Positions 1,919 to 37,085 of a stretch of DNA of 42,077 nucleotides are shown here, piece by piece. The stretch spans positions 1 to 42,077 of the forward strand of contig JAVXAF010000003.1 in assembly GCA_036660635.1 (NCBI GenBank), given 5' to 3'. A program made the position numbers and the translations under genes. The stretch's first letter is position 1. Each line of letters opens with the position of its first letter. Source of the stretch: Clostridia bacterium. Its GTDB lineage: Bacteria > Bacillota > Clostridia > TANB77 > CAG-465. The notes under the pieces are model-generated. The model searched no databases, was not told where the DNA came from, and saw only the letters and a program-made list of their open reading frames with translations.

Positions 1919-3052
1919 TTAGTTATTTGAAGTTACTTGTGAAGAATTGTTGGATTTTTTATATTCTTCTTCAGTTTGAACTGGTTTTCCTGTTATTTGT
2001 TCAACTAATTTATTTAATACTTTTTTATTTACTATAACGTTTTTATTTTCGCTTTTTTTATTAATATCCTCATCTACTATTTTTCTTCTTTCATTAGAAT
2101 TGTTTACTCTACCATTTTCAATAATACTATCTAATTTAATTATATGGAAACCGGCTTCAGTTTCTACTAAAGTTGGATATATTTTTCCAATTGTAAGTCC
2201 TTTTATAGCATTTACATATTCTTCCATTACAGTATTATCCATATATAATTTAAAGACTCCACCATTTTTAGCTGTATTAGTATCCTCAGAATTATCTTTT
2301 GCAAGAGTTATAAAATCTTCTCCTGCTAAAGCTCTATTTAAAATATCTTGTGCCTTATTTCTTGCAATATTTTTTTCTTCTTCTTTTGCAGTTGATTCAA
2401 CCTTAAATAATATATGCCTAGTATTATACTCATTCATATCTGTGTCTTGACCAGATATTTTTTTAATATATGAAGCTACCTCTTCGCTAGATAGTTTTTT
2501 TTCAAGTGAAGCAATATACGCATTAATAATATAATCATTCATATACAATTGTTTCATACTATCAATACTAATTCCTTGTTTTTTTATTGATTCAATTTGT
2601 TTTTCATCTGCAAAAGTCTCATTAACTTTTGCCATATCTTCATCTGAAATAGTTACTCCAGCATTTTTAGCTTCTAATAAAAGTACTTTATCAATTGCAG
2701 CTTTTTGAGCAATTTGATCAGGTATCATATATTCTGGATAACCATAATATCCAAGCATTGGTGAAAATGCTTTATAGTATGTTGTATATTCTGACTTTAT
2801 AACTTTTCCACCATCAAATTTAACAACAGCTTCCATATTTGTTTTATAAAGAAAAAATCCAAATATCAATGCAGCAATAAATAAAACTCCACCAACAATT
2901 GTAAATATTACAACTTTATCACTAATTGGTTCTTTTAGTTGTGTTTTTTTAGCTTTTATCTCTTTTTTTATAGCTTTTAACTGCTCTTTATTTTTCATTT
3001 TTTCTTCTTTTTTTTCTTGTTTTTCTTTTAATTTTGCCTCTTTTTCTTCCAT
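1919..3052 (-). CDS. membrane-anchored parvulin-type peptidyl-prolyl isomerase (PrsA/SurA-like foldase)
   Basis: Lys/Glu-rich N-tail, one TM helix and a SurA-N-like region, followed by the rotamase block 'YNTRHILFKV...NGGVFKL...EAGFHIIKL'. The start ATG overlaps the mfd stop (TAATG). The mfd-prsA-like linkage is common in Firmicutes. Confidence 0.75.
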   Translation of the reverse strand: MEEKEAKLKEKQEKKEEKMKNKEQLKAIKKEIKAKKTQLKEPISDKVVIFTIVGGVLFIAALIFGFFLYKTNMEAVVKFDGGKVIKSEYTTYYKAFSPMLGYYGYPEYMIPDQIAQKAAIDKVLLLEAKNAGVTISDEDMAKVNETFADEKQIESIKKQGISIDSMKQLYMNDYIINAYIASLEKKLSSEEVASYIKKISGQDTDMNEYNTRHILFKVESTAKEEEKNIARNKAQDILNRALAGEDFITLAKDNSEDTNTAKNGGVFKLYMDNTVMEEYVNAIKGLTIGKIYPTLVETEAGFHIIKLDSIIENGRVNNSNERRKIVDEDINKKSENKNVIVNKKVLNKLVEQITGKPVQTEEEYKKSNNSSQVTSNN

Positions 3053-6000
3053 TATTTTTCCTCTTTTCTTATAAACATTTTATTAATATTATCTAATTCT
3101 AACTGTACACGTAATAGTATATCATTACCATTGTTTTTTGTCAATTGAATTTTAAAATTACAAGGTTCAAATTTTATAATTTTTTTTGTTGCAATTATTT
3201 TACTAATACCAAGTTGTCTACACTCATTTCTGATTTCAACAATTTTAATTAAGTTTTCTGTTTCTTTTGGTATTTCACCATACCTATCTAAAAGTTCATC
3301 TATTACATCCATTGTCTCTTCTTTTGTATTAATATCTGAAATTTTTTGGTACATTGATATTTTTTGAAGTGGATCTTTAATGTACTCATCACTAATATAC
3401 GCCGAAATATCTATATCAATTTTTACTTCTTTTTGAACATCATATTTAGCATTTGTATCTTTTCCTCCTTTTTCTTCTCTAATTGCTTTTTCTAAAAGTG
3501 CTAAATACATTTCATATCCAACTTTTGCCATATGTCCATGTTGTTCTTTACCAAGTAAATTTCCAGCTCCCCTTATTTCTAAATCACGAAGTGCTATTTT
3601 AAATCCACTTCCAAATTCAGTAAAATCTTTTATAGCTTTCAATCTTTTAGAAGAAACTTCTGAAATCTGTTTATTTTTTTCATATGTTATATATGCATAT
3701 GCTAGTCTATTTGATCTGCCAACCCTACCTCTTATTTGATATAGCTGCGCTAAGCCTAACTTATCAGCATTTTCAATAATAAGCGTATTGGCATTTTTAA
3801 TATCTATTCCTGATTCTAAAATTGTAGTACATACTATAACATCTAGTTCATGGTTCATAAATTTCAACATAATATTTTCTATCTGTTCAGGATTCATCTG
3901 GCCATGTGCATATGCTACTTTTGCATATGGTACAAGATCTCTTACTTTTTGTGTAACGCTTTCAATATTTGCAACACTATTATTTATATAAAAAACCTGA
4001 CCATCTCTTGAGAGTTCTTTTTCAATTGCCTCTTTAACAACATTTTCATCATATTCTAATACATAAGTATGCACCGGTATTCTTTCTAAAGGCGGCTCTG
4101 TTAATGTACTCATTTTCCTTATACCAATCATAGACATATGAAGAGTTCTTGGAATAGGTGTAGCAGTCATAGAAAGTACATCAATACTTTCTTTTAATTG
4201 TTTTATAGACTCTTTTGCCTTAACACCAAATCTATGCTCTTCATCTATGATTAAAAGTCCTAAATTTTCAAAAAAAACATCTTTAGACAATAATCTATGT
4301 GTACCAATAACTACATCAATTTTGCCATCCACTAATTTTTTTAATATTTCTGTTTGTTCTTTTTTTGTTTTAAATCTACTCAACATTTCTACTTTTATTC
4401 CAAAACTTTCCATTCTGCTTTTAAAAGTAGTATATTGTTGAAGTGATAATACTGTAGTTGGTACAAGATATGCTACTTGTTTTCCACTCATTATAGCCTT
4501 AAACGTCGCCCTAAGAGCCAATTCTGTTTTACCATATCCAACATCTCCGCAAAGTAGCCTATCCATTGGTTTTGCATCTTCCATATCTTGTTTTATTTCC
4601 ATTAAAGATGTCTTTTGATCATTAGTTAATTCATATTCAAAAGAATCTTCAAATTCTTTTTGCCACTGTGTATCTTTTGAAAATGCAAATCCAAAAGCTT
4701 CTTCTCTTTTTGCATATAATAACATTAGTTCTTTTGCTATTTGTTTTACATGAGTTGTAACTTTTCTTTTAGTCTGCTCCCATTGCTTTGTACCAAGACA
4801 ATTAAGTTTTGGCTTAGTATCATCATCGCATACATATTTTTTAACTAAATCCAATTGATTTATTGGAACATACAATGCACCTCTATCAGAGTATTCTAAC
4901 TTTATATAATCTTTTAGTGTGTCTTCAACACGTATAGTCTCAATTCCTTTATATATGCCTATACCATGATTTTCATGAACAATATAGTCTCCTATTTCAA
5001 GATCTTCAAAACTATTTATTGTAGATCCTATAGAAGTTTTTTTAATTTTTTTAGGCAAAGAGGATTTTACTCCGTTTACGCTTTCTGCAATTACTGCTAA
5101 ATTAAAATCATTAAAATCATATCCTGATGATAATATTGCTTTAGTTATATACACCTCACCAATACAAAAATTATCAACAGTTAATACATCGTTTATTTTT
5201 TTAACAATAATTTTATTATCTTTTAAATAATTTTTTATTTGTTCTACTCTATTATCAGTTGGAAAAACCAATAATACCGCTTTTATTTTTTTTAGTCTTA
5301 TAATATCATTTAGAAGTATATCCATTCCACTTTTAAAAAAATTAAGTTCTTTTGTTTCAAAAACATATAATTTTCTTAAAGTATGAACTGATTTATCAAA
5401 AGCTAAATTTTCTAAATATATATTTGTATAATTCTTAAGACTATTTTCTATCTCTTCAAATCTTATGTATTTATTTACAAATGGTATATGAATATATCCT
5501 CTTTCTCCAAACGTTTTTATTGTCTCAATATTTTCATAACAAACATTTTGAGACTTTTTAATACATTTTGATATTTCATCTATATATATACTGTAATTTT
5601 CAAAATAATCAAGTAATGTTTCATACTTTTTAACAAATATCTCAAAATATTTATCAACAATATTTTCTAGATTTCCAGATTCTATTTTTTCAATATCTTC
5701 TAATATACTACTTTTTAATTTATCATCACTATTTGTTTTTAAAAAATCTTTTAACTTTCTTAAACCATTTTCAATGTCAGCTTGATTTATATTATTTTCT
5801 GCAGCATGTGACATTTTAATTTGGTTTAATACATCAATGCTTCTTTGAGTAATGGGATCAAATGTTCTAATACTATCAATTTCATTACCAAAGAGTTCAA
5901 TTCTATATGGAAGCTCACTATTTATTGCAAATATATCAATTAGTGAACCACGAATAGCAAATTGACCTTTTCCCTCAACTAGATTAGATTTTTCATATCC

Positions 6001-10269: not shown

Positions 10270-13200
10270 CTATAATTCAATTTTATCATTCATTTCAAAT
10301 GAATATATATATGAATTGCTCACTTTAAAATCAGTTAACTTTTCGATAGCCTCTTTATATATATCAAGTTGTTTTTTATATTTTTTAATATAGTATGAAG
10401 TTTTATTAGTTTTATCAGTCTTAAAATCTACAAGAATAACCTTTCCATCTTTTGTAATATAATATAGATCTATAACCCCTTGAATAATACTATTTGAAAA
10501 CTTATCATCTTTTAATACAAATGCTTCCTCTTTATATATTTTTTTAGATTCTTTTAATTCCTTTCCTATGCTTGAATTTAAAAAATTAAATATTTTATCA
10601 ATATTTATATAACTTGCGTCTTGTTTAGTTATTACATTTTTTGCTACTAAATCATTTATATATTCTTTTAAAGAAAGTTTATCATAAGTTTTTAAAAAAT
10701 CTAAATGTTCTAAAATAAAATGAATTAGTGTACCTTTTCTAACTGACGTGTAACTAATTTTTTCATCATTTAATACGCTTGGGACCCTGATATTTGTATT
10801 TAAATTTATTTGTTCTTTGGTATCAAATATGTTTTTTAGCTCATCTTCATCATTTGCTTTTTTAAGTTCACTTACACTCACTCTTTGTGGTGTATATGAA
10901 TCCTCTTTGAATTTATATTCTAAATTCAAATTGTTTTCTAAGCATTGAAAAAGTTTATTACTTTTCAAATTTAGATTACAGTTTTGTAATAAGTTTTCTT
11001 TTCTTTGTTTAATACTAATGTTAGTCTTATTTTTTATCTCTTTAAGATCAATACTTTTTAAAAACTCTTCAGATTTAACATTAATAACATTTATATCAAA
11101 AATAGACTTATCATTTATATCCTCTAAATAAATTTTTAAAGCAAGTAAAATATTATCAAAATAACTACTATTTTGTAAAACAATTCTTGGTTCTATTTTG
11201 TTTTTACTATTTAAAAGTACAGTTAAATTTTCTTTTTTCTTGTAATAATCTTGCACACTTGCAAAAATTATCAATTTTTCTTTTGCCCTAGTAAGCGCAA
11301 CATACAACATCCTTAATTCTTCTGACTTAGTTTCCTCAGTTATTTTTTGTTTAATTGCTTGTTTTATAACACTAGGATATGTAACATTTAAATCTTTATT
11401 AACAACATTTATTCCAATACCAAGTTCGTGATGCATATTTACACTTGCACTTGTATCTTTTAAATTATATTTTTTAGCAGTATCTGCAACTATTACAATT
11501 GGAAATTCTAATCCCTTTGATTTATGTATTGTCATAACTCTTACAACATCTTCATTCTCACCAAGTATTTTGACAGAAGAAGTAGAACTATCTGTTTTAT
11601 CTTTTAAGCTATCTATATAGTTTATATATGAATTTAGAGTACATGATATGTTTTTTTCAAATTTTTTAGCCAAATCTATCAATAAATTCAAATTTGCTTT
11701 TCTTTGAGCTGACATATTATCAGTCAAAAATTGTGTATAAATATTAGTTTGTTTATATAGTCTTATTAAAAGTTCGCTTACACTATATATTTTTGAATAT
11801 TTAAAAAATACAGCTAAAATATCCAGAAAATTATTTATTTTTGTAAGTAGTTTTTCCTCAATATTATTTCTTTTTTCTTTAGCTAACAAATTTTCTTTAG
11901 TATCTATTATATTTTCATATAAATATTTTTTTGTATCATTAGACCTAATATATACAAGATCATCAAGTGAAAATCCTCCAACAATACTATACATTACACT
12001 AACTAAATATATGTCTTGTAACGGATTATCGAGTATTCTTAAAAAGCAAAGCACTAGTTTTATTTCTTCACCTTCAAATATATTACTATATGCATCACAA
12101 AACACAGGAATTTCTTCTGATTTTAAAGCTTTTTCAATTATATCCGATCTAGTTTTTATACTTCTTAAAAGTATGGCTATATCCTTGTATTTTAAGCTTA
12201 CAAATTCATTTGTTTTTGAATTATATATTTTAAAATTTTCTTTTAATTCTTTTATTTTTTTTGCAATTAAATATGCTTCAGTTTCAAATGCCTTAAGTTC
12301 TTTTAAATAATTTAATGTTTCATCTTCATCACATTCTTCTTCATCCTCATTTTGATCTTTTAGTAAAAATGTTTCATCTTCTTTTAAATTTACAATATTT
12401 ATTTCAGTTAAATAATTATTTGTATTTAGTTTTGGAATATCTTTAAGTCCTACTTTTAACATTTCATAATTTGAATAATCACAATCTCCAACTTCCATTG
12501 ACATTATTTTTTCAAAAATATAATTAATACTATCTAAAACTTCCGCTCTACTTCTAAAATTTTTAGATAAACTGATTTTAATGTTTTTATCATCTTTTTT
12601 TAAATCAATGTTATTAATACTTTGATAAGTTGCATACTTACTATTAAAAATTTCTGGCATAGCTTGTCTAAATCTATATATGCTTTGTTTTATATCACCC
12701 ACCATAAATCTATTTTTACCGCCAGAAATCGCTTCTAAAATAGCTTCTTGGATAAAGCTTGTGTCTTGATATTCATCAGTATATATTTCAGAAAATTTAT
12801 TTTTTAAGTTTTCTGCTATAGCTGTAGGGAGCATTTTACCTGTATTAGATTTTATAACTAAAAGTTCAAATGCCATATGTTCAATATCATTAAAGTCTAA
12901 AAGATTAGCATCTTTTTTTAATTTCATATATTCTTCATTAAATCTAATAACAATGTTATATATATAATTTACATATTGATATGCAACCCTATTATCTTCT
13001 AATATTTTTTCAGACATTGAGTAAATACTTTTTTTCAAATTCTCTATAGTATTTTTTATTATTTTAGTTCTAAATGAATTGATTTTTTCTTTTATTTCAA
13101 TATTTTGCCCTTTATATGGTGCCATTCTTGAAAAAGATATTTCATTTAATAATGAGTATAATCTATCCCAAGAATTTTCATTTTTATCTATGCAGTTATT

Positions 13201-13998
13201 TATGTAATTTACATCTTGCAAAATAACATTTATTTGCTTTGAAAATTCCTCTGTTTTTTCTATAGTATTTAATAGTTCTTCTGTTTTTTTACTTACTATT
13301 TTAAGTTCATCAATAGCATTTTCAAAAATTTGTTTTCCAAAATTTGTATTTGTTAAATCAGTATTTAATTTTATATTATATTTTTCAATATTTTCACTAA
13401 GCCATAAATATGGATATGCAAAAGATTGTATATATGAATAAATATTAAAAATATACGCTATAAAATCATCATCTTTTCCAGAAAATAATTCTAATACATT
13501 ATATAAGTCAGAAGTAATCTCCAAATTATTTTTATTTTTTTCATCTTTAACAATAGTATATTGTGAATCTAATATTTTACTAATTGCTTTATTTTTTAAA
13601 ATATCACTTTGTGATTGATCACATATTGAAAACGCTGGATCAATATCTAATATATTAAAATTAGAACGTATTAATTCTAAGCAAAAAGCATGAATAGTTG
13701 TAATATTTGCTCTGTTTAAAAGAAGTACTTGACGTCTTAAAAAAAAGTCCTTTGGGTTTTCATCTAACTTTTTATATATTGCTAGAAGCAATCTTTCCTT
13801 AAGTTCTGCTGCTGCTGCATTTGTGAAAGTAACAACTAAAATTTTGTCTATATCAATTTTTTCGTTTATAACTTTATGAATTACTCTTTCGACTAATACT
13901 GCAGTTTTTCCACTTCCTGCTGAAGCAGATACCAAAATATTTTTCCCATACACATTTATTGCATTATTTTGCTCATTTGTCCATTTTTTATCTGCCAT
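10270..13998 (-). CDS. addA: ATP-dependent helicase/nuclease subunit A (AddA/RexA)
   Basis: 1242 aa. UvrD-type motifs 'VSASAGSGKTAVLVERV', 'TDEYQDTS' and 'MTIHKSKGLEFPIV', plus a C-terminal RecB-type nuclease block 'GVIDLYYITKDGKVILVDFKTDK...YKKQLDIY'. Confidence 0.85.
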   Translation of the reverse strand: MADKKWTNEQNNAINVYGKNILVSASAGSGKTAVLVERVIHKVINEKIDIDKILVVTFTNAAAAELKERLLLAIYKKLDENPKDFFLRRQVLLLNRANITTIHAFCLELIRSNFNILDIDPAFSICDQSQSDILKNKAISKILDSQYTIVKDEKNKNNLEITSDLYNVLELFSGKDDDFIAYIFNIYSYIQSFAYPYLWLSENIEKYNIKLNTDLTNTNFGKQIFENAIDELKIVSKKTEELLNTIEKTEEFSKQINVILQDVNYINNCIDKNENSWDRLYSLLNEISFSRMAPYKGQNIEIKEKINSFRTKIIKNTIENLKKSIYSMSEKILEDNRVAYQYVNYIYNIVIRFNEEYMKLKKDANLLDFNDIEHMAFELLVIKSNTGKMLPTAIAENLKNKFSEIYTDEYQDTSFIQEAILEAISGGKNRFMVGDIKQSIYRFRQAMPEIFNSKYATYQSINNIDLKKDDKNIKISLSKNFRSRAEVLDSINYIFEKIMSMEVGDCDYSNYEMLKVGLKDIPKLNTNNYLTEINIVNLKEDETFLLKDQNEDEEECDEDETLNYLKELKAFETEAYLIAKKIKELKENFKIYNSKTNEFVSLKYKDIAILLRSIKTRSDIIEKALKSEEIPVFCDAYSNIFEGEEIKLVLCFLRILDNPLQDIYLVSVMYSIVGGFSLDDLVYIRSNDTKKYLYENIIDTKENLLAKEKRNNIEEKLLTKINNFLDILAVFFKYSKIYSVSELLIRLYKQTNIYTQFLTDNMSAQRKANLNLLIDLAKKFEKNISCTLNSYINYIDSLKDKTDSSTSSVKILGENEDVVRVMTIHKSKGLEFPIVIVADTAKKYNLKDTSASVNMHHELGIGINVVNKDLNVTYPSVIKQAIKQKITEETKSEELRMLYVALTRAKEKLIIFASVQDYYKKKENLTVLLNSKNKIEPRIVLQNSSYFDNILLALKIYLEDINDKSIFDINVINVKSEEFLKSIDLKEIKNKTNISIKQRKENLLQNCNLNLKSNKLFQCLENNLNLEYKFKEDSYTPQRVSVSELKKANDEDELKNIFDTKEQINLNTNIRVPSVLNDEKISYTSVRKGTLIHFILEHLDFLKTYDKLSLKEYINDLVAKNVITKQDASYINIDKIFNFLNSSIGKELKESKKIYKEEAFVLKDDKFSNSIIQGVIDLYYITKDGKVILVDFKTDKTNKTSYYIKKYKKQLDIYKEAIEKLTDFKVSNSYIYSFEMNDKIEL

Positions 13999-14065
13999 AT
14001 TTATATTTATACAAAAAAATTGTATATCCCCTTTCTTTTTAATATTTTCATATTTTTCATATTTT

Positions 14066-15289
14066 TTATTTCATTTTATGTGCATTATCTAAAATCATAT
14101 TTTTAAGTAAAACATTTCCAGCATTATCTATTATTGCAACCTTTACTTTGGTTACCTCTTTGGGTAATTTTATTGTGACCATGTTATTTTTATCTAAATC
14201 TGCTTTTTTAGCTTTTGTTAACATATATTCTTCATTAAAATCGATAATATTCGAAAAATATGGTACTTCTATACCATTTAAATCTAATTTTGTTAAATAT
14301 TCATATCTTACATTTTTAATTTTACTACCTATAGTCTCATTTGCTAAAAAGGTTAGTGATTTTATATTTTGATATTGAATATATGAATAATCATCACCTA
14401 AATTTGATGATATAACATTATCATAGTTTTCTAAATTAATTCTATATGATCCAACATTTTTTCCAGCATTTTCTTTTATTATATCAATATATTTATTAGT
14501 TGTTATATTATTAAAATTTGTAATAGTACTACTAGGTATAGATGTAGTTAATAATGCTTTTTTATTTATATCTTCTAAACTATTAAAAAAGATATTAACT
14601 TCTATTCCAGATGTCACAAACTCATATTTTTCCGGATAGCTGCTAATTGTTAAATATAGCTTATCATTGGGTTGTAATCTTGAAGATATATTTATATTCA
14701 TTAAATTAGTCCATCTAGCATTATTTTTAGTGATATTAATTTTGCTATTGGTATTATTATCAATTGATATATTAGAGCTATCTAATGTTTCACCTTTTTT
14801 ATCGGTAAATTTTGCTATTTTAGAAGTAATTGAAAAATACATCATCGATTTAACTTTTATTCCTTTTAAATAATAAATATTAAACGAAGGGTATGAAACT
14901 ATATATATATCATCTGCAGATTTTTGTTCACTTACTTTATTTGGATTATTAATCTCTATTTTATTTAAATCTATTTCATAAAATGAAGATGCACTATCAG
15001 CTTTTAAATTTACCTCTTTTTCAAATTCAGTAACATTTGAACTAAGCAATATTTTTTTAACATCTTCAATAGTTAATGGATTTGTTCCATTAACAAAAGG
15101 AATAACACCATTTAATATATAATAACTTTTTACTGCATCTTCTAATTTTGTAATATCACTTGAAAAATTTACAAGTTTTGTGTTATTAGAACTATCATTT
15201 ATTTCTAATAATACAGCTGATGCTAAAATTATCATTACTATTATAGTAATAATTAATACAATAAGAGAAATACCTTTTTTATATATCAT
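14066..15289 (-). CDS. pilin-like (prepilin-type N-terminus, no Glu+5) surface protein, core-only paralog
   Basis: The N-terminus 'MIYKKG|ISLIVLIITIIVMIIL' resembles a class III signal. It shares the blocks 'DDIYIVSYPSFNIYYLKGIKV..YFSITSK', 'WTN', 'ENYDNV', 'IKNVRYEYL', 'MLTKAKKA' and 'IDNAGNV' with the ORFs at 15321-18065 and 24149-26371. Confidence 0.6.
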   Translation of the reverse strand: MIYKKGISLIVLIITIIVMIILASAVLLEINDSSNNTKLVNFSSDITKLEDAVKSYYILNGVIPFVNGTNPLTIEDVKKILLSSNVTEFEKEVNLKADSASSFYEIDLNKIEINNPNKVSEQKSADDIYIVSYPSFNIYYLKGIKVKSMMYFSITSKIAKFTDKKGETLDSSNISIDNNTNSKINITKNNARWTNLMNINISSRLQPNDKLYLTISSYPEKYEFVTSGIEVNIFFNSLEDINKKALLTTSIPSSTITNFNNITTNKYIDIIKENAGKNVGSYRINLENYDNVISSNLGDDYSYIQYQNIKSLTFLANETIGSKIKNVRYEYLTKLDLNGIEVPYFSNIIDFNEEYMLTKAKKADLDKNNMVTIKLPKEVTKVKVAIIDNAGNVLLKNMILDNAHKMK

Positions 15290-15320
15290 TTATTTAATTA
15301 CCCTTCTTTCTATAATTACA

Positions 15321-18065
15321 TTATTTTATTGGGCAAAGAACTACTCTATATCCAACATTATTGTCATTTGTTGTAGGAAGTGCCACAGATGAAAAACTTC
15401 CTGCTTGAGATGGTGTGGATTGTAAAACAAAGGGTGGATTTGTGGAATTAAATACTATATATCCTCCTCTTACAAAAAAGTTAAAATTATATTCACTATT
15501 TACTCCTCCACAAAGATCTTCGTTCCAACTCAAAAGATTATTATTACTTGACTGCACCTCATATGTGGCATCTCCAATTTTTGAATTGTTTATAGTAAAT
15601 ATTGGTGAGTCTATATCTTGGGGATATAAAGTAATATATTTGTTACTTTCTCTAAATATAGTATTTCTATCTGTAGCCGAAGCCATTGCTTCTCCTATTT
15701 TACTACTCATATCATATATTCCATATGGTGAGCCTGTTGACGAAAGAGCAGTATTTTTAGTATAAACTTCACTTTCTATATTACTTCCTCCGGAATATCT
15801 TGTATTATTTATATCTGTAGTTTGTGTACCTCTTCCATACTCGCTACCATATTCACTTCTAGAAAGATACGCAACAGCTCCCCACTCACTATTTTTCATT
15901 AAATGGCTGTCATAATCACTTAAGGAATTAAACAACGAATATTTTAATGCATTATTATATGAATTTTGTAATTCTATATTAGTCCAACATTCTAATGTAG
16001 GTTTGGAAACAGCTTTTAAAGTATTAGAAATATTAACATTCCCTGGTAAATTATTTGCAGCATTTAATTCTCCACTCATTTTATATTTTGATACCCAAAA
16101 TCCATCTAGTTCACTATCCCATCCACCATTTTTAAAAGAATTTATTGAATCATCTGTAAAGGCTGGATGAATAATATAATCACTTATAGTAGGTAAAGTT
16201 TGACTAGTTGGTATAAAGTTAATTTGTATTGTGCCATATGAAGATGATGAAATCATCTTCGGTGCTTGTATTATTTTATATTCAAACCTTGGTATCCATA
16301 CCCAATACGATCCATCTGGAGTTCTTGCATTTGCCCACATTTTACTTCCTTGCACTAAAGAATAATTATACCAATCTCCACTTCCTATCCTATTTTGTGG
16401 TACCTCATCCCATTTATTCGTAGATATATTATATTCTACTGGTATCATTCCATCCATTAATACAGGCTTATTTATGCCTTTATTATTATCCCAATCATCT
16501 GAAATATTGTTGATTCCATCAGTATCAATATCAAATTCAAATATTCTTGTGAAAATTTTTTTATCAGCTACATTTGTAGGATTATCTTTTGCTACAATTT
16601 TTATATAAAGTTTATCTGTTATATTTTTAATATCTAACTTTTCAAGATTTTGGATCAAAAATGTTTTCTCACTAATTGGCACATTTTTAATATCTGAATA
16701 TATATTAGTATATATATTATTATCTAAGCTTACACTTACACTTACATCTGATAAACCACTTTTTAAGCCAAATACTAGCGAATATCTAAGAATTTCTCCC
16801 TTAAAATATTTAACATTTAAACCAATATACATATTATCAGATGTATTTCTAATCATATTTATTTTATTTCCAGATTTATCAAATATATTTATTTGTATTC
16901 CTTCTATTTCTTTTGGTATTTCTATTTCAACATATCCAGAAGAAGATATTTTTGCTTTTTTTGCTCTAGATTTCATATATATTTCATCATACTCTGTTAT
17001 ACCAGAATAAAAGCAAGCAATTTCTCCTTTTTTATTATACTTTTTCAAGTACTCGTACCTTACCTCTTTAATTCCACTACTCTCATCACTTATTTTAAAA
17101 GATATAACATTTTTCATATCTGATATTTTAATAATTGTATCTTGATTGATAACTGGTGAAACATTATCATAATTTGAATATTTTACTTCAACTCTTCCTA
17201 CTTCTTCTCCACTTTTTTCTTTAGTAATTTCAATTTTTTTATCATTTAAGCTTGCAGATTCAAAATTTAGTTTATCAGATGCTAAAATACTAGTAGAGAT
17301 ACCTTTTGTAACTAGTTCATCAAATGTGTTAAAGGAAATTTTATTAGTTGACTTTTTTGTAGTATTTAGCTTTATTTTATTTCCACCTTGTATATATAAA
17401 TATAGTTCCTCTCCATCTTCTATATATGAATCAATAGTTAGATCTAAAGAATTTGTCCACTTTTTATTTAACTTTCTAACTGTTATGCCATTTACAGTTT
17501 GCACAGTAGTGCTACTATCTGATAAAGTATTCGTTTGATTTAACTTAGTTATATCTGAAATCTTCGAAGTAAAAGAAAAATATTTATTTTTATTTACTTT
17601 TATACCTTTTAGATAGTATACATTCATTGATGGATATGCAACCACATACACATCATTATTTTCACCTGATTTTTTATATCCTTTTTTAGAATTTGTAATA
17701 TCTATTTTTGACAAATCTATAAAATAAAATGCTCCTAACATTTCATTTGTATTTTTATCCAAATTTAGTTCAAGCTCTTGAGTAAATATATTCTTATCAG
17801 ATAATGGTATTAAATCCATTAAAGCTTTTTGTGAGATAGGCATTTCACTATCCAAATATGGTATTTCATCATTTTGTATATAATATGAAGATACTTGATC
17901 TTCAATAGTAGATATTTCTTCAGCAAAACTTACAAGTGCTGCATTATTTTTTGACGTATTTACACTAATTATAATAGCTGTTGTAAGTATTATAGTTATT
18001 ACTATTGTTATAACAAGTAAAATTAAAGATATGCCTAATTTTTTATCGCCTATTTTTATATTCAT
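15321..18065 (-). CDS. pilin-like modular surface protein, core plus large C-terminal FGE-sulfatase/C-type-lectin-like head
   Basis: I prefer the start ATG at 18065 (MNIKIGDKKLG|ISLILLVITIV...), which has AAAGGTGG 6 nt upstream. The track start is 18083. Core blocks are 'NDVYVVAYPSMNVYYLKGIKV..YFSFTSK', 'SNYDNVSPVI', 'SGIKEVRYEYL', 'MKSRAKKAK' and 'FDKSGN'. C-terminal region blocks are 'WVWIPRFEYKI', 'HPAF', 'DGFWVSKYKMS', 'HLMKNSEWGAVAYLSRSEYG', 'FFVRGG' and 'VGYRVVL'. Confidence 0.6.
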   Translation of the reverse strand: MNIKIGDKKLGISLILLVITIVITIILTTAIIISVNTSKNNAALVSFAEEISTIEDQVSSYYIQNDEIPYLDSEMPISQKALMDLIPLSDKNIFTQELELNLDKNTNEMLGAFYFIDLSKIDITNSKKGYKKSGENNDVYVVAYPSMNVYYLKGIKVNKNKYFSFTSKISDITKLNQTNTLSDSSTTVQTVNGITVRKLNKKWTNSLDLTIDSYIEDGEELYLYIQGGNKIKLNTTKKSTNKISFNTFDELVTKGISTSILASDKLNFESASLNDKKIEITKEKSGEEVGRVEVKYSNYDNVSPVINQDTIIKISDMKNVISFKISDESSGIKEVRYEYLKKYNKKGEIACFYSGITEYDEIYMKSRAKKAKISSSGYVEIEIPKEIEGIQINIFDKSGNKINMIRNTSDNMYIGLNVKYFKGEILRYSLVFGLKSGLSDVSVSVSLDNNIYTNIYSDIKNVPISEKTFLIQNLEKLDIKNITDKLYIKIVAKDNPTNVADKKIFTRIFEFDIDTDGINNISDDWDNNKGINKPVLMDGMIPVEYNISTNKWDEVPQNRIGSGDWYNYSLVQGSKMWANARTPDGSYWVWIPRFEYKIIQAPKMISSSSYGTIQINFIPTSQTLPTISDYIIHPAFTDDSINSFKNGGWDSELDGFWVSKYKMSGELNAANNLPGNVNISNTLKAVSKPTLECWTNIELQNSYNNALKYSLFNSLSDYDSHLMKNSEWGAVAYLSRSEYGSEYGRGTQTTDINNTRYSGGSNIESEVYTKNTALSSTGSPYGIYDMSSKIGEAMASATDRNTIFRESNKYITLYPQDIDSPIFTINNSKIGDATYEVQSSNNNLLSWNEDLCGGVNSEYNFNFFVRGGYIVFNSTNPPFVLQSTPSQAGSFSSVALPTTNDNNVGYRVVLCPIK

Positions 18066-18088
18066 ATTATACCACCTTTTCATTATAT

Positions 18089-18124
18089 ATTTTATCCATT
18101 ATTTAAGCATTTTTCAAGTCTTTT
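18089..18124 (-). promoter_or_regulatory. promoter of the tandem pilin-like operon (shared motif AAAAGACTTGAAAAAT)
   Basis: Minus strand reads aaaagacTTGAAAaatgcttaaataatggaTAAAAT, with a 17-nt spacer. The same 16-mer around the -35 box recurs at 26424-26439. Confidence 0.5.
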
Positions 18125-18204: not shown

Positions 18205-18678
18205 ATGTACGTTAAAAATATAAAAGATATAGATATATCTACAAACTCTTTTGAATATATTTATATTTCTAAATCTGATATGCAAACAAAAGCTCTCGCT
18301 TTATATATTGCATCTATGTTAAAAAAAACCGATGTGGTTGTACTAAATGGTGAACTTGGAGCTGGAAAAACAACATTTATGCAAGGAATTGCAAAATACT
18401 TTGATATTGAAAATCAAATATCTAGTCCTACTTTTACTATTGTTAATGAATATACTACAAAAGATAAAAACAATATATACCACTTTGATGTATATAGAAT
18501 AGAAAATAGTCAAGACTTTGAAGAAACAATAGGGACAGAATATTTTGAAAATGGTATTTCAATAATCGAATGGGGAAATATTATATCTGATATATTACCT
18601 AAAAAAACTATATATATAGATATTTCAAAAAAAGAAGATACCAACTCAAGATCTTTACATATATGGAGGAAGATTTAA
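18205..18678 (+). CDS. tsaE: tRNA t6A37 biosynthesis ATPase TsaE
   Basis: 'VVVLNGELGAGKTTFMQGIAKYF', 'SPTFTIVNEY' and 'HFDVYR' are hallmark YjeE/TsaE blocks. Confidence 0.85.
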   Translation: MYVKNIKDIDISTNSFEYIYISKSDMQTKALALYIASMLKKTDVVVLNGELGAGKTTFMQGIAKYFDIENQISSPTFTIVNEYTTKDKNNIYHFDVYRIENSQDFEETIGTEYFENGISIIEWGNIISDILPKKTIYIDISKKEDTNSRSLHIWRKI

Positions 18679-24148: not shown

Positions 24149-26371
24149 TTATCTATTTAGATCATAATCTAATATAACTTTCCACTCGGGAGTTACAAGC
24201 TTTATGGAATATAACTTACCTTTAAAAAATCCATCTGACGCATCTCCTGATCTTCCTATATAATTTATACTTCTTGTGTCAGTAGAAATAGGATTAATAC
24301 CATACATCATTCCTGTTCCTGCTCTATCTATTGCTATATTATCTTTGTCTATATCTCCCCTATACCAGCCTGCTGTTCCTCCCTCACCTGTGCCACCTTG
24401 CACCCACCTTAAATAAAATTTAGCTTTTTTATTTAATTCAATTGCAGATGTACTTTTAGAGTATATATCTAAGTGAGCATTGTTATATGTATTTAATCTA
24501 AATAATATTTGTCCCGTATTTGCATAATTTTGAACATATATTGTATCATTGTTTTCACCAGAACCTAAGCTTAAAATTCTAGAATTATTATTAAATGCTT
24601 GCCAAGTTGCAACAAGCTCTACTCTCATTCCAGTTTTACTATTAATTGCAGCTGGAATCGTTGGTATTATTGCATAATCATCAATTCCATCAAATTCTAG
24701 CGCATACTTTCCATCAGGATCTTGAACAACTTTTAGCCCACTCATTAAATTAGCATCTAATCCGTTACCAGAATAATCTTTTAATATTTTATTTTCAATT
24801 GAAACTTTAAATTCACTTACAAGTTTTGGATTATCAATTGGCTCTACTTTTACTTTTACATCTTGTTTATTATATAATTTTTTACCTGTTGGTACAATTA
24901 GTTTAACTTTATTTGAATCATCATGTGCTGCATCTCCTGCTATTTTTGTTACAACACGATCATTAGTAGAGTTAACACCATTTAAACTAAAGTCCACATT
25001 ATCTACTTGCCCACCTATTGGATTTTCAATTGATACAGCATAATCGATATTTTTATTTGTATGAAAATCATTATCATGATTTTTTACAGTAAGCTCAAGC
25101 TCACTTGTTCCGTTTGAATTTAAAGTTACAGCATTAGTTGATATATTAGACTGAAATATATATGGTGAGTAATGAATGTTTTTTTGTGCATATAACATCA
25201 CATTTCCCGCCTTGTCAAAAACGGCAATCATAACGTATTTTGCTTGCGAAGAGAAATTAAAGTCAACATTAAAAGATGCATCTAACTTTGCTTTTTTTCC
25301 TCTTGATTTCATAAATTCTATATTATAAGTATTAATTAATACATTTTGATCTATATTAGGATCTAATACTGGGAAAAACCTAACTTCTTTTATACCACTT
25401 AAATCATCCTTTACTGCAAACTTTGTATTAACATTTTCTAAATTAAGTGTCATATTAATTTGATTATTTGTTATAACTGGTGCTAAATAATCATAATTTG
25501 ATATATCTATTTCTACTGTCCCAACTATTTTCGAATTTTCCTTTTTTGTAAATATAATCTTTTTTTTATCCTTTGCAAGTGTATTAAATTGTGTTTTAAA
25601 ACTTAAGATTTCTTGATCTGTAATAGTTAAAGCTCCTAATAATTTCATACTTTCTAAATCATTAATTTCAAAGTCATTAAAATTACTTGGTAGATTTAGT
25701 TTCCTTTCAACTCCATCTGGTAGAGTAATATATATTTCATCTGTCACATTTAAATATGCTGATATAGATATTCCAAAAGTATTACTCCAAACCTTGACTT
25801 TCTTTTTTATAGTAACCCCAGGCAAATTTTTTATAATAACAGGAGCTACTTCTTGTAGTTCTGGTTCTTTAATATTAATAATTTTTGATAGATTTTTTGT
25901 AAGGGAAAAATAAGTAGTTCCTTTTGCTTTTACCCCTTTTAAATAATATATATTCATAGAAGGATATGAAATTACATATACATCATTTTCTACTTTTTTT
26001 GTACCTCTTTTACTCTTTTTTACACCAAGTTTTTCTAAACTTATAACATAGTACTCTCCTTCTGTACCAGTTACAACTTTATCTTGATTTAATTCCATCT
26101 CTTTTAATATTAATTCTTTATTTTTATTATTTACTAAATTAATAATTCCATCTTGTGAAATTGGATTTATATCAAAATATGGCAACTCATTATTTTCATA
26201 ATAATAACTTTTACATTTTTCTTGTAAATCTGATAATTCTTTTGCAAAAGCTGTTAGTTTAGAATTATCTAAACTTTCTTTTACTCCAATTGTTGTCACA
26301 CTAAGAAGTATTAATATAACTACAATTGTTATTACAAGAACTATTAAAGAAATTCCTTTTTTTAATTTCAT
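24149..26371 (-). CDS. pilin-like modular surface protein, core plus C-terminal LamG/concanavalin-A-like lectin domain
   Basis: N-terminus 'MKLKKG|ISLIVLVITIVVIL'. Core blocks are 'NDVYVISYPSMNIYYLKGVKA..YFSLTK', 'SNYDYLAPVI', 'SGIKEVRF', 'MKSRGKKAK' and 'FDKAGNV'. The C-terminus 'KDYSGNGLDANLMSG...YALEFDGIDDYAIIP...GFFKGKLYSIKL' is a classic LamG-like jelly-roll (Laminin_G_3) signature. SD is GAGGT. Confidence 0.65.
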   Translation of the reverse strand: MKLKKGISLIVLVITIVVILILLSVTTIGVKESLDNSKLTAFAKELSDLQEKCKSYYYENNELPYFDINPISQDGIINLVNNKNKELILKEMELNQDKVVTGTEGEYYVISLEKLGVKKSKRGTKKVENDVYVISYPSMNIYYLKGVKAKGTTYFSLTKNLSKIINIKEPELQEVAPVIIKNLPGVTIKKKVKVWSNTFGISISAYLNVTDEIYITLPDGVERKLNLPSNFNDFEINDLESMKLLGALTITDQEILSFKTQFNTLAKDKKKIIFTKKENSKIVGTVEIDISNYDYLAPVITNNQINMTLNLENVNTKFAVKDDLSGIKEVRFFPVLDPNIDQNVLINTYNIEFMKSRGKKAKLDASFNVDFNFSSQAKYVMIAVFDKAGNVMLYAQKNIHYSPYIFQSNISTNAVTLNSNGTSELELTVKNHDNDFHTNKNIDYAVSIENPIGGQVDNVDFSLNGVNSTNDRVVTKIAGDAAHDDSNKVKLIVPTGKKLYNKQDVKVKVEPIDNPKLVSEFKVSIENKILKDYSGNGLDANLMSGLKVVQDPDGKYALEFDGIDDYAIIPTIPAAINSKTGMRVELVATWQAFNNNSRILSLGSGENNDTIYVQNYANTGQILFRLNTYNNAHLDIYSKSTSAIELNKKAKFYLRWVQGGTGEGGTAGWYRGDIDKDNIAIDRAGTGMMYGINPISTDTRSINYIGRSGDASDGFFKGKLYSIKLVTPEWKVILDYDLNR

Positions 26372-36434: not shown

Positions 36435-37085
36435 TTATTTAAAATCATTTAATGTTTTTCCAAAAGCTTCTTTGATTTCATCAAACATTGCTTTTGTTTC
36501 GTTTACCAGTAAATTACTAATATATCCCATTTCGATAGACTTAGTAAGCCAGTTAAACTCATCTAAATTGTCATAAATAACTTCGTTAAATTTTTTTTCA
36601 TTATATAAGTCTCTTTTTCTTTGCTTTATATATAGATTAACACCACATATCGAATTAGTAACCTGCATAGTCTCATTATCTCCCAAAGAAATCAAAGTAG
36701 CTTTTCTATATGAAGCTGCTTCAAAATACCTATAGAGAGTATCTGTTTTTTTATCCACATTATATAATGGATAACTAAGAGTTGATAAATCTTTTATCCT
36801 CCTAAAATATAACTCATTAAATTTATCATTTAACTCCTTATATAATGGATCATTTAAAAATCCATAGGCTGTATACTCAAATATCCGACCTTTATTTGCT
36901 AGATCTGCTTCTTCAAACAGAAGCTGATTTAGTTCAAATACATTAACGTCTGATAAAGGATTTTCATCCATGTAATGTAACACAGAGTCCATTTTTCTTA
37001 TCAGTTCATAAATTGTTCTTTCAAAGACAATCTTTGCGCTTTCAACTTTGTTATCTGATACCAATTTTTTTATTTCATCAAACAT
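36435..37085 (-). CDS. hypothetical protein (no family recognised)
   Basis: 216-aa ORF, soluble and predicted mostly helical. SD AAGGAGAAG lies 5 nt upstream, and the gene has its own consensus promoter and terminator. 'MFDEIK' occurs at both the N-terminus and near the C-terminus. Confidence 0.6.
   Translation of the reverse strand: MFDEIKKLVSDNKVESAKIVFERTIYELIRKMDSVLHYMDENPLSDVNVFELNQLLFEEADLANKGRIFEYTAYGFLNDPLYKELNDKFNELYFRRIKDLSTLSYPLYNVDKKTDTLYRYFEAASYRKATLISLGDNETMQVTNSICGVNLYIKQRKRDLYNEKKFNEVIYDNLDEFNWLTKSIEMGYISNLLVNETKAMFDEIKEAFGKTLNDFK

Follow-up and report, generated by a model that had tools for sequence, protein, structure and literature searches.

What becomes of a pilin-like N-terminus that lacks the glutamate at position +5 (Glu5) and is joined to large C-terminal domains? 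This question is raised by two adjacent open reading frames (ORFs) in a 42,077-nucleotide (nt) stretch of contig JAVXAF010000003.1 from a Clostridia bacterium, referred to here as the window: ORF A (14066..15289, minus strand), which encodes 407 residues, and ORF B (15321..18065, minus strand), which encodes 914. An earlier reading of the DNA, the original prediction, had described the two as an operon of pilin-like modular proteins. According to the ORF list, paralogy and AlphaFold2 models, ORF A is a headless protein made up of a pilin-like module and two immunoglobulin (Ig)-like domains, and ORF B comprises a pilin-like module, an Ig-like stalk and a head with an FGE/C-type-lectin fold. A third paralog in the window (24149..26371, minus strand; 740 residues) ends in a LamG/ConA-like head. 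We consider it likely that all three derive from pilins, are displayed at the surface and act as modular binding proteins whose heads can be exchanged.

In the arrangement that we propose, the N-terminus would start with a short, basic leader that ends in an invariant Gly. A hydrophobic segment, α1-N, would come next and insert in the membrane, and the remainder of the 56-residue helix together with a small β-sheet would form the pilin-like module. Two Ig-like domains, or probably three in ORF B, would serve as a stalk that reaches through the wall and holds out a C-terminal head where one is present. The heads (a putatively nonenzymatic FGE/C-type-lectin domain in ORF B, a LamG/ConA-like lectin domain in the third paralog and none in ORF A) would bind ligands, either glycans or proteins, and their diversity would arise by paralogy at a hotspot between tsaE and addA and, in at least one relative, by DNA inversion as well. 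The enzyme that cleaves after the Gly would be a prepilin peptidase whose gene lies elsewhere. Lacking Glu5, each protein would join a type IV filament only as its first, tip-most subunit, or else would remain an unpolymerised, membrane-anchored stalk.

A pilin-like N-terminal module without Glu5

Both ORFs lie on the minus strand between tsaE and addA, as originally described, and they are paralogs (37% identity over 412 residues, E = 1e-55). The common core of approximately 400 residues that had been proposed for them was recovered, with the blocks DVYVVAYPSMNVYYLKGIKV, WTN, NYDNV, IKEVRYEYL, AKKA and DKSGN all present in the alignment of ORF A with ORF B. The shorter protein consists of this core only and is headless, and the longer one carries an extra C-terminal part, the head, again as had been stated. 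We placed the start of ORF B at the ATG at 18065, which has a ribosome-binding site (AAAGGTGG) 7 nt upstream; the mechanical ORF list runs to 18083. The 914-residue product is identical to the public protein P0001, and the public record calls the same start.

The signal of ORF A reads MIYKKG↓ISLIV, with the arrow standing after the Gly. That of ORF B (residues 1-66; 17868..18065, minus strand) is class III-like, with the leader MNIKIGDKKLG, Gly11 at position -1 and Leu at +5, and leads into helix α1. The third paralog begins with MKLKKG↓ISLIVLVITIVV. We aligned the N-terminal modules of 33 proteins (alignment A1), in which the first ~190 residues of homologs show a mean identity of 40% and Gly11, Leu17, Tyr61, Pro69 and Tyr150 (ORF B numbering) are invariant. 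The conserved pilin-like module corresponds to residues 1-170 of ORF B (17556..18065, minus strand) and exists in stand-alone versions in relatives. Gly at -1 is present in all 33 proteins of A1, and Ala takes its place in one of 135 further cluster representatives.

A set of 78 distinct N-termini, for which a Gly before the hydrophobic stretch was the search criterion, yielded the consensus (K)(K/S/N/R/Q)G↓(I/V)(S/T)(L/M)(I/V/L)(V/I/A)L(I/V)(I/V)(T/S)I. Position +1 is I, V, M or L, +2 is S or T, +3 is L or M and +6 is L in 77 of the 78; K, R, N, S or Q is found at -2 and K at -3; and positions +1, +2, +3, +6, +9 and +10 are strongly conserved. Glu was found at +5 in none of these N-termini and in none of 128 further cluster representatives, the residues there being V, I, A, S, M or T. 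The hydrophobic run after the Gly extends over 22-24 residues. The combination of basic leader, Gly and hydrophobic run, with the motif K-x-G↓I-S-L-I-(V/L)-L-(I/V)-I-T-I, that first drew attention to the pair is thus real and far beyond chance, and the observation that +5 is not Glu extends from the pair to both of the larger sets. Judged from these alignments, the N-terminal conservation exceeds what a plain membrane anchor would need.

When the A1 profile was searched against 177,635 PDB sequences, the 13 best matches were all type IV pilins or pseudopilins, including Geopilin 9egp (E = 1.9e-7), 7tgg (1e-4), PilE1 8pfb (1.7e-4), PulG 5wda (0.012) and pilins of Neisseria and Pseudomonas. The first non-pilin, HIV Vpu, appeared at rank 15 with an E value of 0.4. 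The alignments with pilins span the leader, Gly-1 and the whole of α1 up to the motif YY.QND..P, which corresponds to Y.LDN..YP of GspG-type pseudopilins. Curated models gave sub-threshold matches, namely TIGR01710 (GspG) with an E value of 0.02 for ORF A residues 5-64, and PF08334 (T2SSG) and PF07963 (N_methyl) each for 3 of the 33 proteins. Pfam and NCBIfam scans of ORF A and ORF B returned nothing above threshold, and a phmmer search of ORF B against PDB sequences returned no match. At the level of sequence, homology of the leader and α1 to those of type IV pilins is therefore supported beyond the hydrophobic stretch, and the pilin likeness initially seen by eye is substantiated by the profile alignment of this region with Geopilin, PilE1 and PulG.

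To model ORF A with AlphaFold2, we used a 38-sequence alignment (model mfb0eea612b66; mean predicted local distance difference test [pLDDT] score 84.6, with the blocks of the module mostly at 73-93). In the module of ORF A (residues 1-160; 14810..15289, minus strand), a continuous helix spans residues 5-60 and is followed by short helices at 74-95 and by strands at 102-106, 129-133, 138-140, 144-146 and 149-151. The predicted order of elements in the first ~160 residues fits the topology of type IV pilins.

A second Glu5-less N-terminus, KKG↓ISLIVLVITIIVIIILAGAVIL.LSKNNPI.SAKKAKF, adjoins family genes in some relatives. Proteins of this type have 178 residues (L023), 655 residues or, in the case of giants, 965-1660 residues, and their region after the helix is unlike the family module. 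Their genes were located at 2913-5810 and 12866-15838 of locus L013, at 3780-5747 and 13309-18291 of L025, and at 13766-14302 of L023.

Predicted Ig-like stalks and exchangeable heads

After the module, the ORF A model has a low-confidence linker (residues 163-174) and then two β-sandwiches (174-290 and 297-400, both with pLDDT >90), which are encoded at 14090..14770 (minus strand; residues 174-400). Foldseek matched the model with tandem pairs of fibronectin type III (FnIII) or Ig domains, including those of the adhesins SiiE and Bap and the FnIII domains of integrin β4, and the suggestion that the C-terminal blocks of the core are Ig-like is thereby upheld. By homology to this model, residues ~184-406 of ORF B (16848..17516, minus strand) are predicted to form two Ig/FnIII-like sandwiches. 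The β-rich spacer that follows (residues ~407-523; 16497..16847, minus strand) is, from its sequence only, probably a third; residues 494-520, which are residues 1-27 of the head model, came out disordered.

The head of ORF B (residues ~524-914; 15324..16496, minus strand) was modeled as the C-terminal 421 residues of the protein with 70 sequences (pLDDT 84.1, predicted template-modeling score 0.88). The model has an FGE/C-type-lectin fold, for which Foldseek returned TaqVP (5vf4, E = 2.8e-6), PvdO (8e-4) and, more weakly, OvoA/EgtB. Matches in a viral structure library (E = 2e-8 to 3e-4) comprised a SUMF-like phage protein and tail collar fibre proteins of phages, the latter at ~1e-8 to 1e-5. 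We found 3172 sequence homologs of the head, whose consensus GNxxEW...RGG...GFR is in register with the motifs YGIYDMS...VRGGY...VGYRVVL of ORF B.

Given the fold matches to PvdO, OvoA and EgtB, and given that a few of the homologs are named as FGE-family proteins or match PF03781, ORF B might be a membrane-tethered enzyme of the FGE/EgtB/PvdO superfamily, such as a sulfatase-maturing or sulfoxide-synthase-like oxidase. ORF B itself has no Pfam match above threshold, however, and no alignment column contains Cys in ≥30% of the 70 aligned heads, the Cys pair of FGE being absent. The best structural matches are also nonenzymatic binding proteins, and paralogs bear a lectin-type LamG head. With no conserved Cys column, the head is unlikely to be an enzyme of the FGE type and that role was rejected; for the enzymatic explanation as a whole we see very little chance. 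The head thus appears to be nonenzymatic, and a binding role is its best reading, with ligand binding suggested by the modeled fold.

The closest structural relatives of the ORF B head, TaqVP and phage tail collar fibre proteins, would also be expected if these genes encoded prophage- or phage-derived tail fibre proteins, or variable proteins diversified by a diversity-generating retroelement (DGR). No relative was found on 2.9 million viral contigs, though, and the position among housekeeping genes is fixed in ~20 species; nor did the window or the related loci contain a reverse transcriptase or a template/variable repeat. An N-terminal membrane helix is, moreover, incompatible with a virion fibre. 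Phage origin was rejected for want of relatives on viral contigs, and a DGR for want of a repeat and a reverse transcriptase, so that this explanation is the least credible of those considered here. Given the fixed synteny and the negative search of viral contigs, we regard the family as chromosomal and not viral.

The third paralog combines the common core with its own head. It matched ORF B in a phmmer search (E = 1.2e-67, residues 4-440) and shares 31% identity with ORF A over 417 residues, and its gene is found ~6 kb from the pair, on the tsaE side and next after the gene for a LonC-like protease. One genome therefore encodes headless, FGE/C-type-lectin-headed and lectin-headed versions. 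Composition-adjusted BLASTP of 15324-18065 against 24152-26371 gave no alignment, and unadjusted BLASTP gave an E value of 3e-79; the miss is an artefact of the method with proteins of low complexity encoded by very AT-rich DNA.

Exchange of heads was apparent in a relative, the metagenome-assembled genome (MAG) "uncultured Clostridia bacterium BRZ_BV bin83," in which loci L018 (1-6500) and L011 (3040-3149) have a shufflon-like arrangement. Three 3' cassettes without promoters, two of them on the opposite strand, lie in among two family genes. A 32-nt core site, TGCGCAAAAT.G..TTAATGCGAACTTCAGTG, precedes every cassette, and each cassette begins in the middle of an FGE-like head. The site occurs in five copies, two of them inverted, and lies inside both expressed genes as well as before the cassettes; the bin83 assembly is broken exactly at it. 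Metagenome proteins with a common N-terminal body end in different heads: P0014 and P0016 in cassette c2 (98% identity), P0015 and P0017 in c1 (86%), and P0028, P0032 and P0034 in c3 (74-85%), with P0020-P0023, P0026 and P0027 carrying the head that is currently expressed at L018/L011 (94-100%). No Rci-like recombinase gene was found within 12 kb of these loci, downstream of which lie addA and yfiH, and the window contains neither 32-nt sites nor cassettes. With three head states in one genome and a relative that swaps heads by DNA inversion, the notion of a lineage-restricted family with exchangeable heads, put forward in the original prediction as a possibility, has gained substance.

The N-termini of the head homologs were also examined. 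Of the 120 sequences that match the ORF B head best, 75 start with G-(I/V)-T-L-(I/V)-(A/S)-L (G-ITLIALVITIIVLLILAG) and have no Glu5. A wider class in Clostridia (P0059-P0173, loci L029-L033) combines an FGE-like head with the Glu5-less N-terminus K-G-ITLIALVITIIVLLILAGVSIA.LTGENGIL. NCBI gives some proteins of the wider class the name "type II secretion system GspH family protein." The genes of the class are surrounded by housekeeping genes, frequently with paralogs in tandem, and no prepilin peptidase, secretion ATPase or platform gene was found around them at the loci inspected.

Family, locus and route to the cell surface

The search for homologs of ORF B returned 54 proteins, each of them unnamed or "hypothetical" and each from a MAG of uncultured Clostridia or Bacilli. 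A scan of one genome per species yielded 25 loci, all in MAGs of uncultured Clostridia/Bacillota, and family-bearing genomes include Clostridium sp. CAG:465, CAG:921 and CAG:1219. Names of the CAG:465 type probably denote the GTDB order TANB77. A profile search of 1.84 billion cluster representatives (clustered at 50% identity) returned 167 clusters at E ≤ 1e-30 over the whole module, which is a lower bound for the family, and 1,151 at E ≤ 1e-10. The 167 clusters all stem from uncultured Clostridia.

The gene order lonC-rimI-tsaB-tsaE-[1-4 copies]-addA-yfiH is kept in ~20 species, with lonC, rimI, tsaB and tsaE on one strand and the family genes, addA and yfiH on a single strand. In the window, the upstream edge of this conserved insertion site is tsaE (18205..18678, plus strand; PF02367) and its downstream edge is addA (10270..13998, minus strand; UvrD and PDDEXK domains). 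Members range from 159 residues (module only) through ~400 (headless) and ~800 (FGE-like head) up to 2,315, and homologs carry PF13385, PF12810 and PF00553.

Stand-alone modules of 159-174 residues are encoded by the last gene before addA at L015 (15410-15934), L021 (15075-15560) and L024 (5846-6325). Because such proteins exist, we consider the module to be an autonomous unit, and the stand-alone proteins could be filament subunits. An extension of this idea is a new, Glu5-independent filament, with small members as the major subunits and large ones as the minor or tip subunits; it would resemble archaeal type IV pili, which do not require Glu5. It accords with the absence of Glu5 throughout and with the existence of module-only proteins of 139-192 residues; 15 of the 135 newly returned cluster representatives have <200 residues. 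Module-only genes were nevertheless found in only 3 of 26 loci and not in the window, and no dedicated machinery is linked to them; we therefore think such a filament improbable.

Transcription of the pair was described originally as that of a two-gene operon. ORF B and ORF A are separated by 31 nt (15290..15320, minus strand), in which there is a ribosome-binding site (GAAAGAAGGG) and, as reported, no terminator-like hairpin. The pair itself is real, but the description is too narrow, given that there is a third paralog and that addA follows ORF A after 67 nt (13999-14065) on the same strand with no terminator in the gap. The transcription unit is therefore possibly longer than two genes, and addA may belong to the same transcript as the family genes. 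The promoter-like sequence TTGAAA-17-TAAAAT proposed upstream of ORF B is present (18089..18117, minus strand), in the divergent region common with tsaE, and is a 10/12 match to the sigma-70-like pattern. Its frequency is no better than that in shuffled sequence, however (43 sites found versus 40 expected in this very AT-rich DNA), and a promoter at this position is for that reason only plausible.

The rest of the window, whose G+C content is ~25%, contains housekeeping genes only: spoIIR, mfd, ligA, addA, tsaE/tsaB/rimI, the LonC-like protease gene, murE, disA, radA, nusG and ribosomal protein genes. An ORF of 216 residues at 36435-37085 (minus strand), upstream of rplL/rplJ, has no Pfam match.

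How the proteins reach and remain at the surface bears directly on our interpretation. In the systems characterised so far, Glu5 neutralises the N-terminus of the neighbouring subunit and is dispensable only in the tip-most subunit, such as GspK or PilA of Streptococcus sanguinis (PMC9934059). All members of the family lack it and would therefore be either alternative tip subunits that are the first to enter a filament with its body encoded elsewhere, or anchors and stalk bases that never polymerise. The near-invariant Gly-1, the conservation of the full 165-residue module and the existence of module-only proteins point toward processing and assembly. We regard tip display and membrane anchoring as roughly evenly balanced, with tip display slightly favoured.

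Several observations count against a pilin-derived display of this kind. As stated in the original prediction, neither a prepilin peptidase nor a secretion ATPase or platform gene is present in the 42-kb window, and none was found in the gene maps and annotations of 33 related loci (~0.5 Mb). Regular expressions for A24 peptidase (GxGDxK) and T2SSE Walker A motifs, which are blind to the TadA-type GGTGSGKTT, likewise had no match in the related loci. Curated pilin models (IPR012902/PF07963 and the TIGR02532 type) stayed below threshold, and the globular part of the module had no sequence match to any solved pilin in the PDB profile search. Given that Foldseek of the whole ORF A model, in which the sandwiches dominate, returned Ig-like matches and no pilin, the pilin fold of the globular part is argued from topology, just as ligand binding by the heads is argued from their fold. 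Known systems have only one Glu5-less subunit per filament, and here every member is of that kind, including the stand-alone proteins of ~160 residues; at least three such proteins per genome fit a non-polymerising anchor at least as well. The placement of the source MAG in TANB77, finally, follows from the names of related genomes and is only probable.

Among the genes flanking family members in relatives, clusters c13-c17 (L010, L028) encode a deacetylase, an ABC transporter, an AlaX-like protein and a HIT protein, and clusters c10 and c27-c29 encode a nucleoside phosphorylase, a YhcG-like nuclease and RsmD. A Tad-like pilus cluster with "pilin-like" genes has been described in 95% of TANB77 species (PMC11680825) and is a candidate for the machinery; as a further point against our interpretation, the published cluster lists no prepilin peptidase (PMC11680825).

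The same facts can be accommodated by plain type II signal-anchored membrane proteins, in which the pilin-like N-terminus would be a relic anchor, with neither cleavage nor filament. Glu5 is absent in all of >200 sequences; there are several paralogs per genome, with sizes of up to 2,315 residues and never a link to pilus machinery; and the Glu5-less G-ITLIALVITIIVLLILAG N-terminus on the majority of the best FGE-head homologs was always encoded among housekeeping genes. A relic anchor does not readily explain, however, why Gly-1 and the motif K-x-G↓I-(S/T)-L are conserved despite an overall family identity of only ~30-40%, or why the whole 165-residue module is the best-conserved part and also stands alone, which suggests a conserved partner or a role in assembly. 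We hold this explanation to be a serious possibility, though on balance not the probable one.

A less conventional idea is that the Glu5-less N-terminus G-(I/V)-(S/T)-L defines a distinct, undescribed clostridial route of sorting and display, a counterpart of the bindosome of Sulfolobus. Non-polymerising modules would be processed and then held at the membrane or capped on a short stub. The route would be used by the family and by thousands of G-ITLIALVITIIVLLILAG proteins with FGE-like heads, with a chromosomal shufflon in some species. We put this forward tentatively and rather doubt it.

Relation to known systems

Modular pilins are a recently recognised way to place adhesins on type IV filaments. 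Surveys of them relied on a signature that contains Glu5, and Glu5-less families are therefore invisible to such surveys. The family described here is specific to an uncultured, reduced-genome lineage of gut Clostridia, probably TANB77, whose pilin-like proteins have been associated with cancer immunotherapy response. Its proteins, all annotated as hypothetical, are likely to be among the main surface-exposed proteins with which the lineage faces host or glycans. The loss of Glu5 across the family offers a direct test of the need for this residue in pilin-type display in monoderms, and the tsaE-addA hotspot, together with the shufflon of a relative, points to strong diversifying selection on the heads. 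A literature search with the N-terminal peptide GITLIALV found no match. Each of the two features has precedents, in modular pilins and in Glu5-less tip pilins, respectively; for a large family that unites them we found no description.

The nearest parallels are the modular pilins PilB and PilC of S. sanguinis, which consist of a pilin module with grafted modules (PMC8179133, PMC9934059). PilC, with its pilin, Ig-like and ConA-like lectin parts, resembles the third paralog and the members that bear PF13385, and an adhesin role has been proposed for both. Like modular pilins, the present proteins have extra modules (two Ig-like domains, FGE/C-type lectin and LamG), whereas the IPR012902/Glu5 motif by which such proteins were recognised (PMC8179133) was not found in them. 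PilB and PilC have a Glu5 signal, were found by IPR012902 and are encoded in a pil locus; the family has no Glu5, is missed by curated models, sits between tsaE and addA at a distance from any machinery, and has a far larger conserved module, of ~165 residues, whose globular part shows no sequence similarity. Pseudopilins of the GspK/PilK type and PilA of S. sanguinis likewise combine Gly-1 and a hydrophobic α1-N with the lack of Glu5. GspK and PilA are, however, single-copy proteins of a minor-pilin operon (HIJK or pilABC), in contrast to the 1-4 Glu5-less paralogs per locus found here, for which we found no partner minor pilins.

In TANB77, probably the same lineage, the Tad-like cluster includes "pilin-like" proteins that have a single transmembrane helix at the N-terminus; one is large, with 621 residues (PMC11680825). 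That cluster is a different locus, with the order CpaB-TadZ-CpaE-TadA-TadBC followed by genes 932-938, and was set against the family by description only.

With regard to head exchange, the PilV adhesins of the thin pili of IncI plasmids (R64, TP114) have a C-terminal specificity part that is exchanged by inversion in the Rci shufflon (PMC9045228). L018/L011 resemble this system in their constant 5' body, 32-nt site and inverted promoterless 3' cassettes, and differ from it in being chromosomal, in belonging to gut Clostridia of Gram-positive type, in having an unrelated site and in the lack of a recombinase within 12 kb. The fold of the ORF B head and a presumed binding of surface ligands are common to the DGR variable proteins with a C-type-lectin/FGE fold, such as TaqVP, Mtd and TvpA (PMC5758913). 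Those proteins vary by mutagenic retrohoming, whereas the family, which has neither reverse transcriptase nor template repeat, varies by paralogy and cassette exchange. The bindosome of Sulfolobus, finally, is built of sugar-binding proteins with class III signal peptides (PMC3047682), and its substrates likewise are functional proteins, not pilins, that bear a pilin-type signal and are presented at the cell surface. It is archaeal, depends on the dedicated Bas assembly system and displays solute-binding proteins, whereas the clostridial family consists of adhesin-like stalks.

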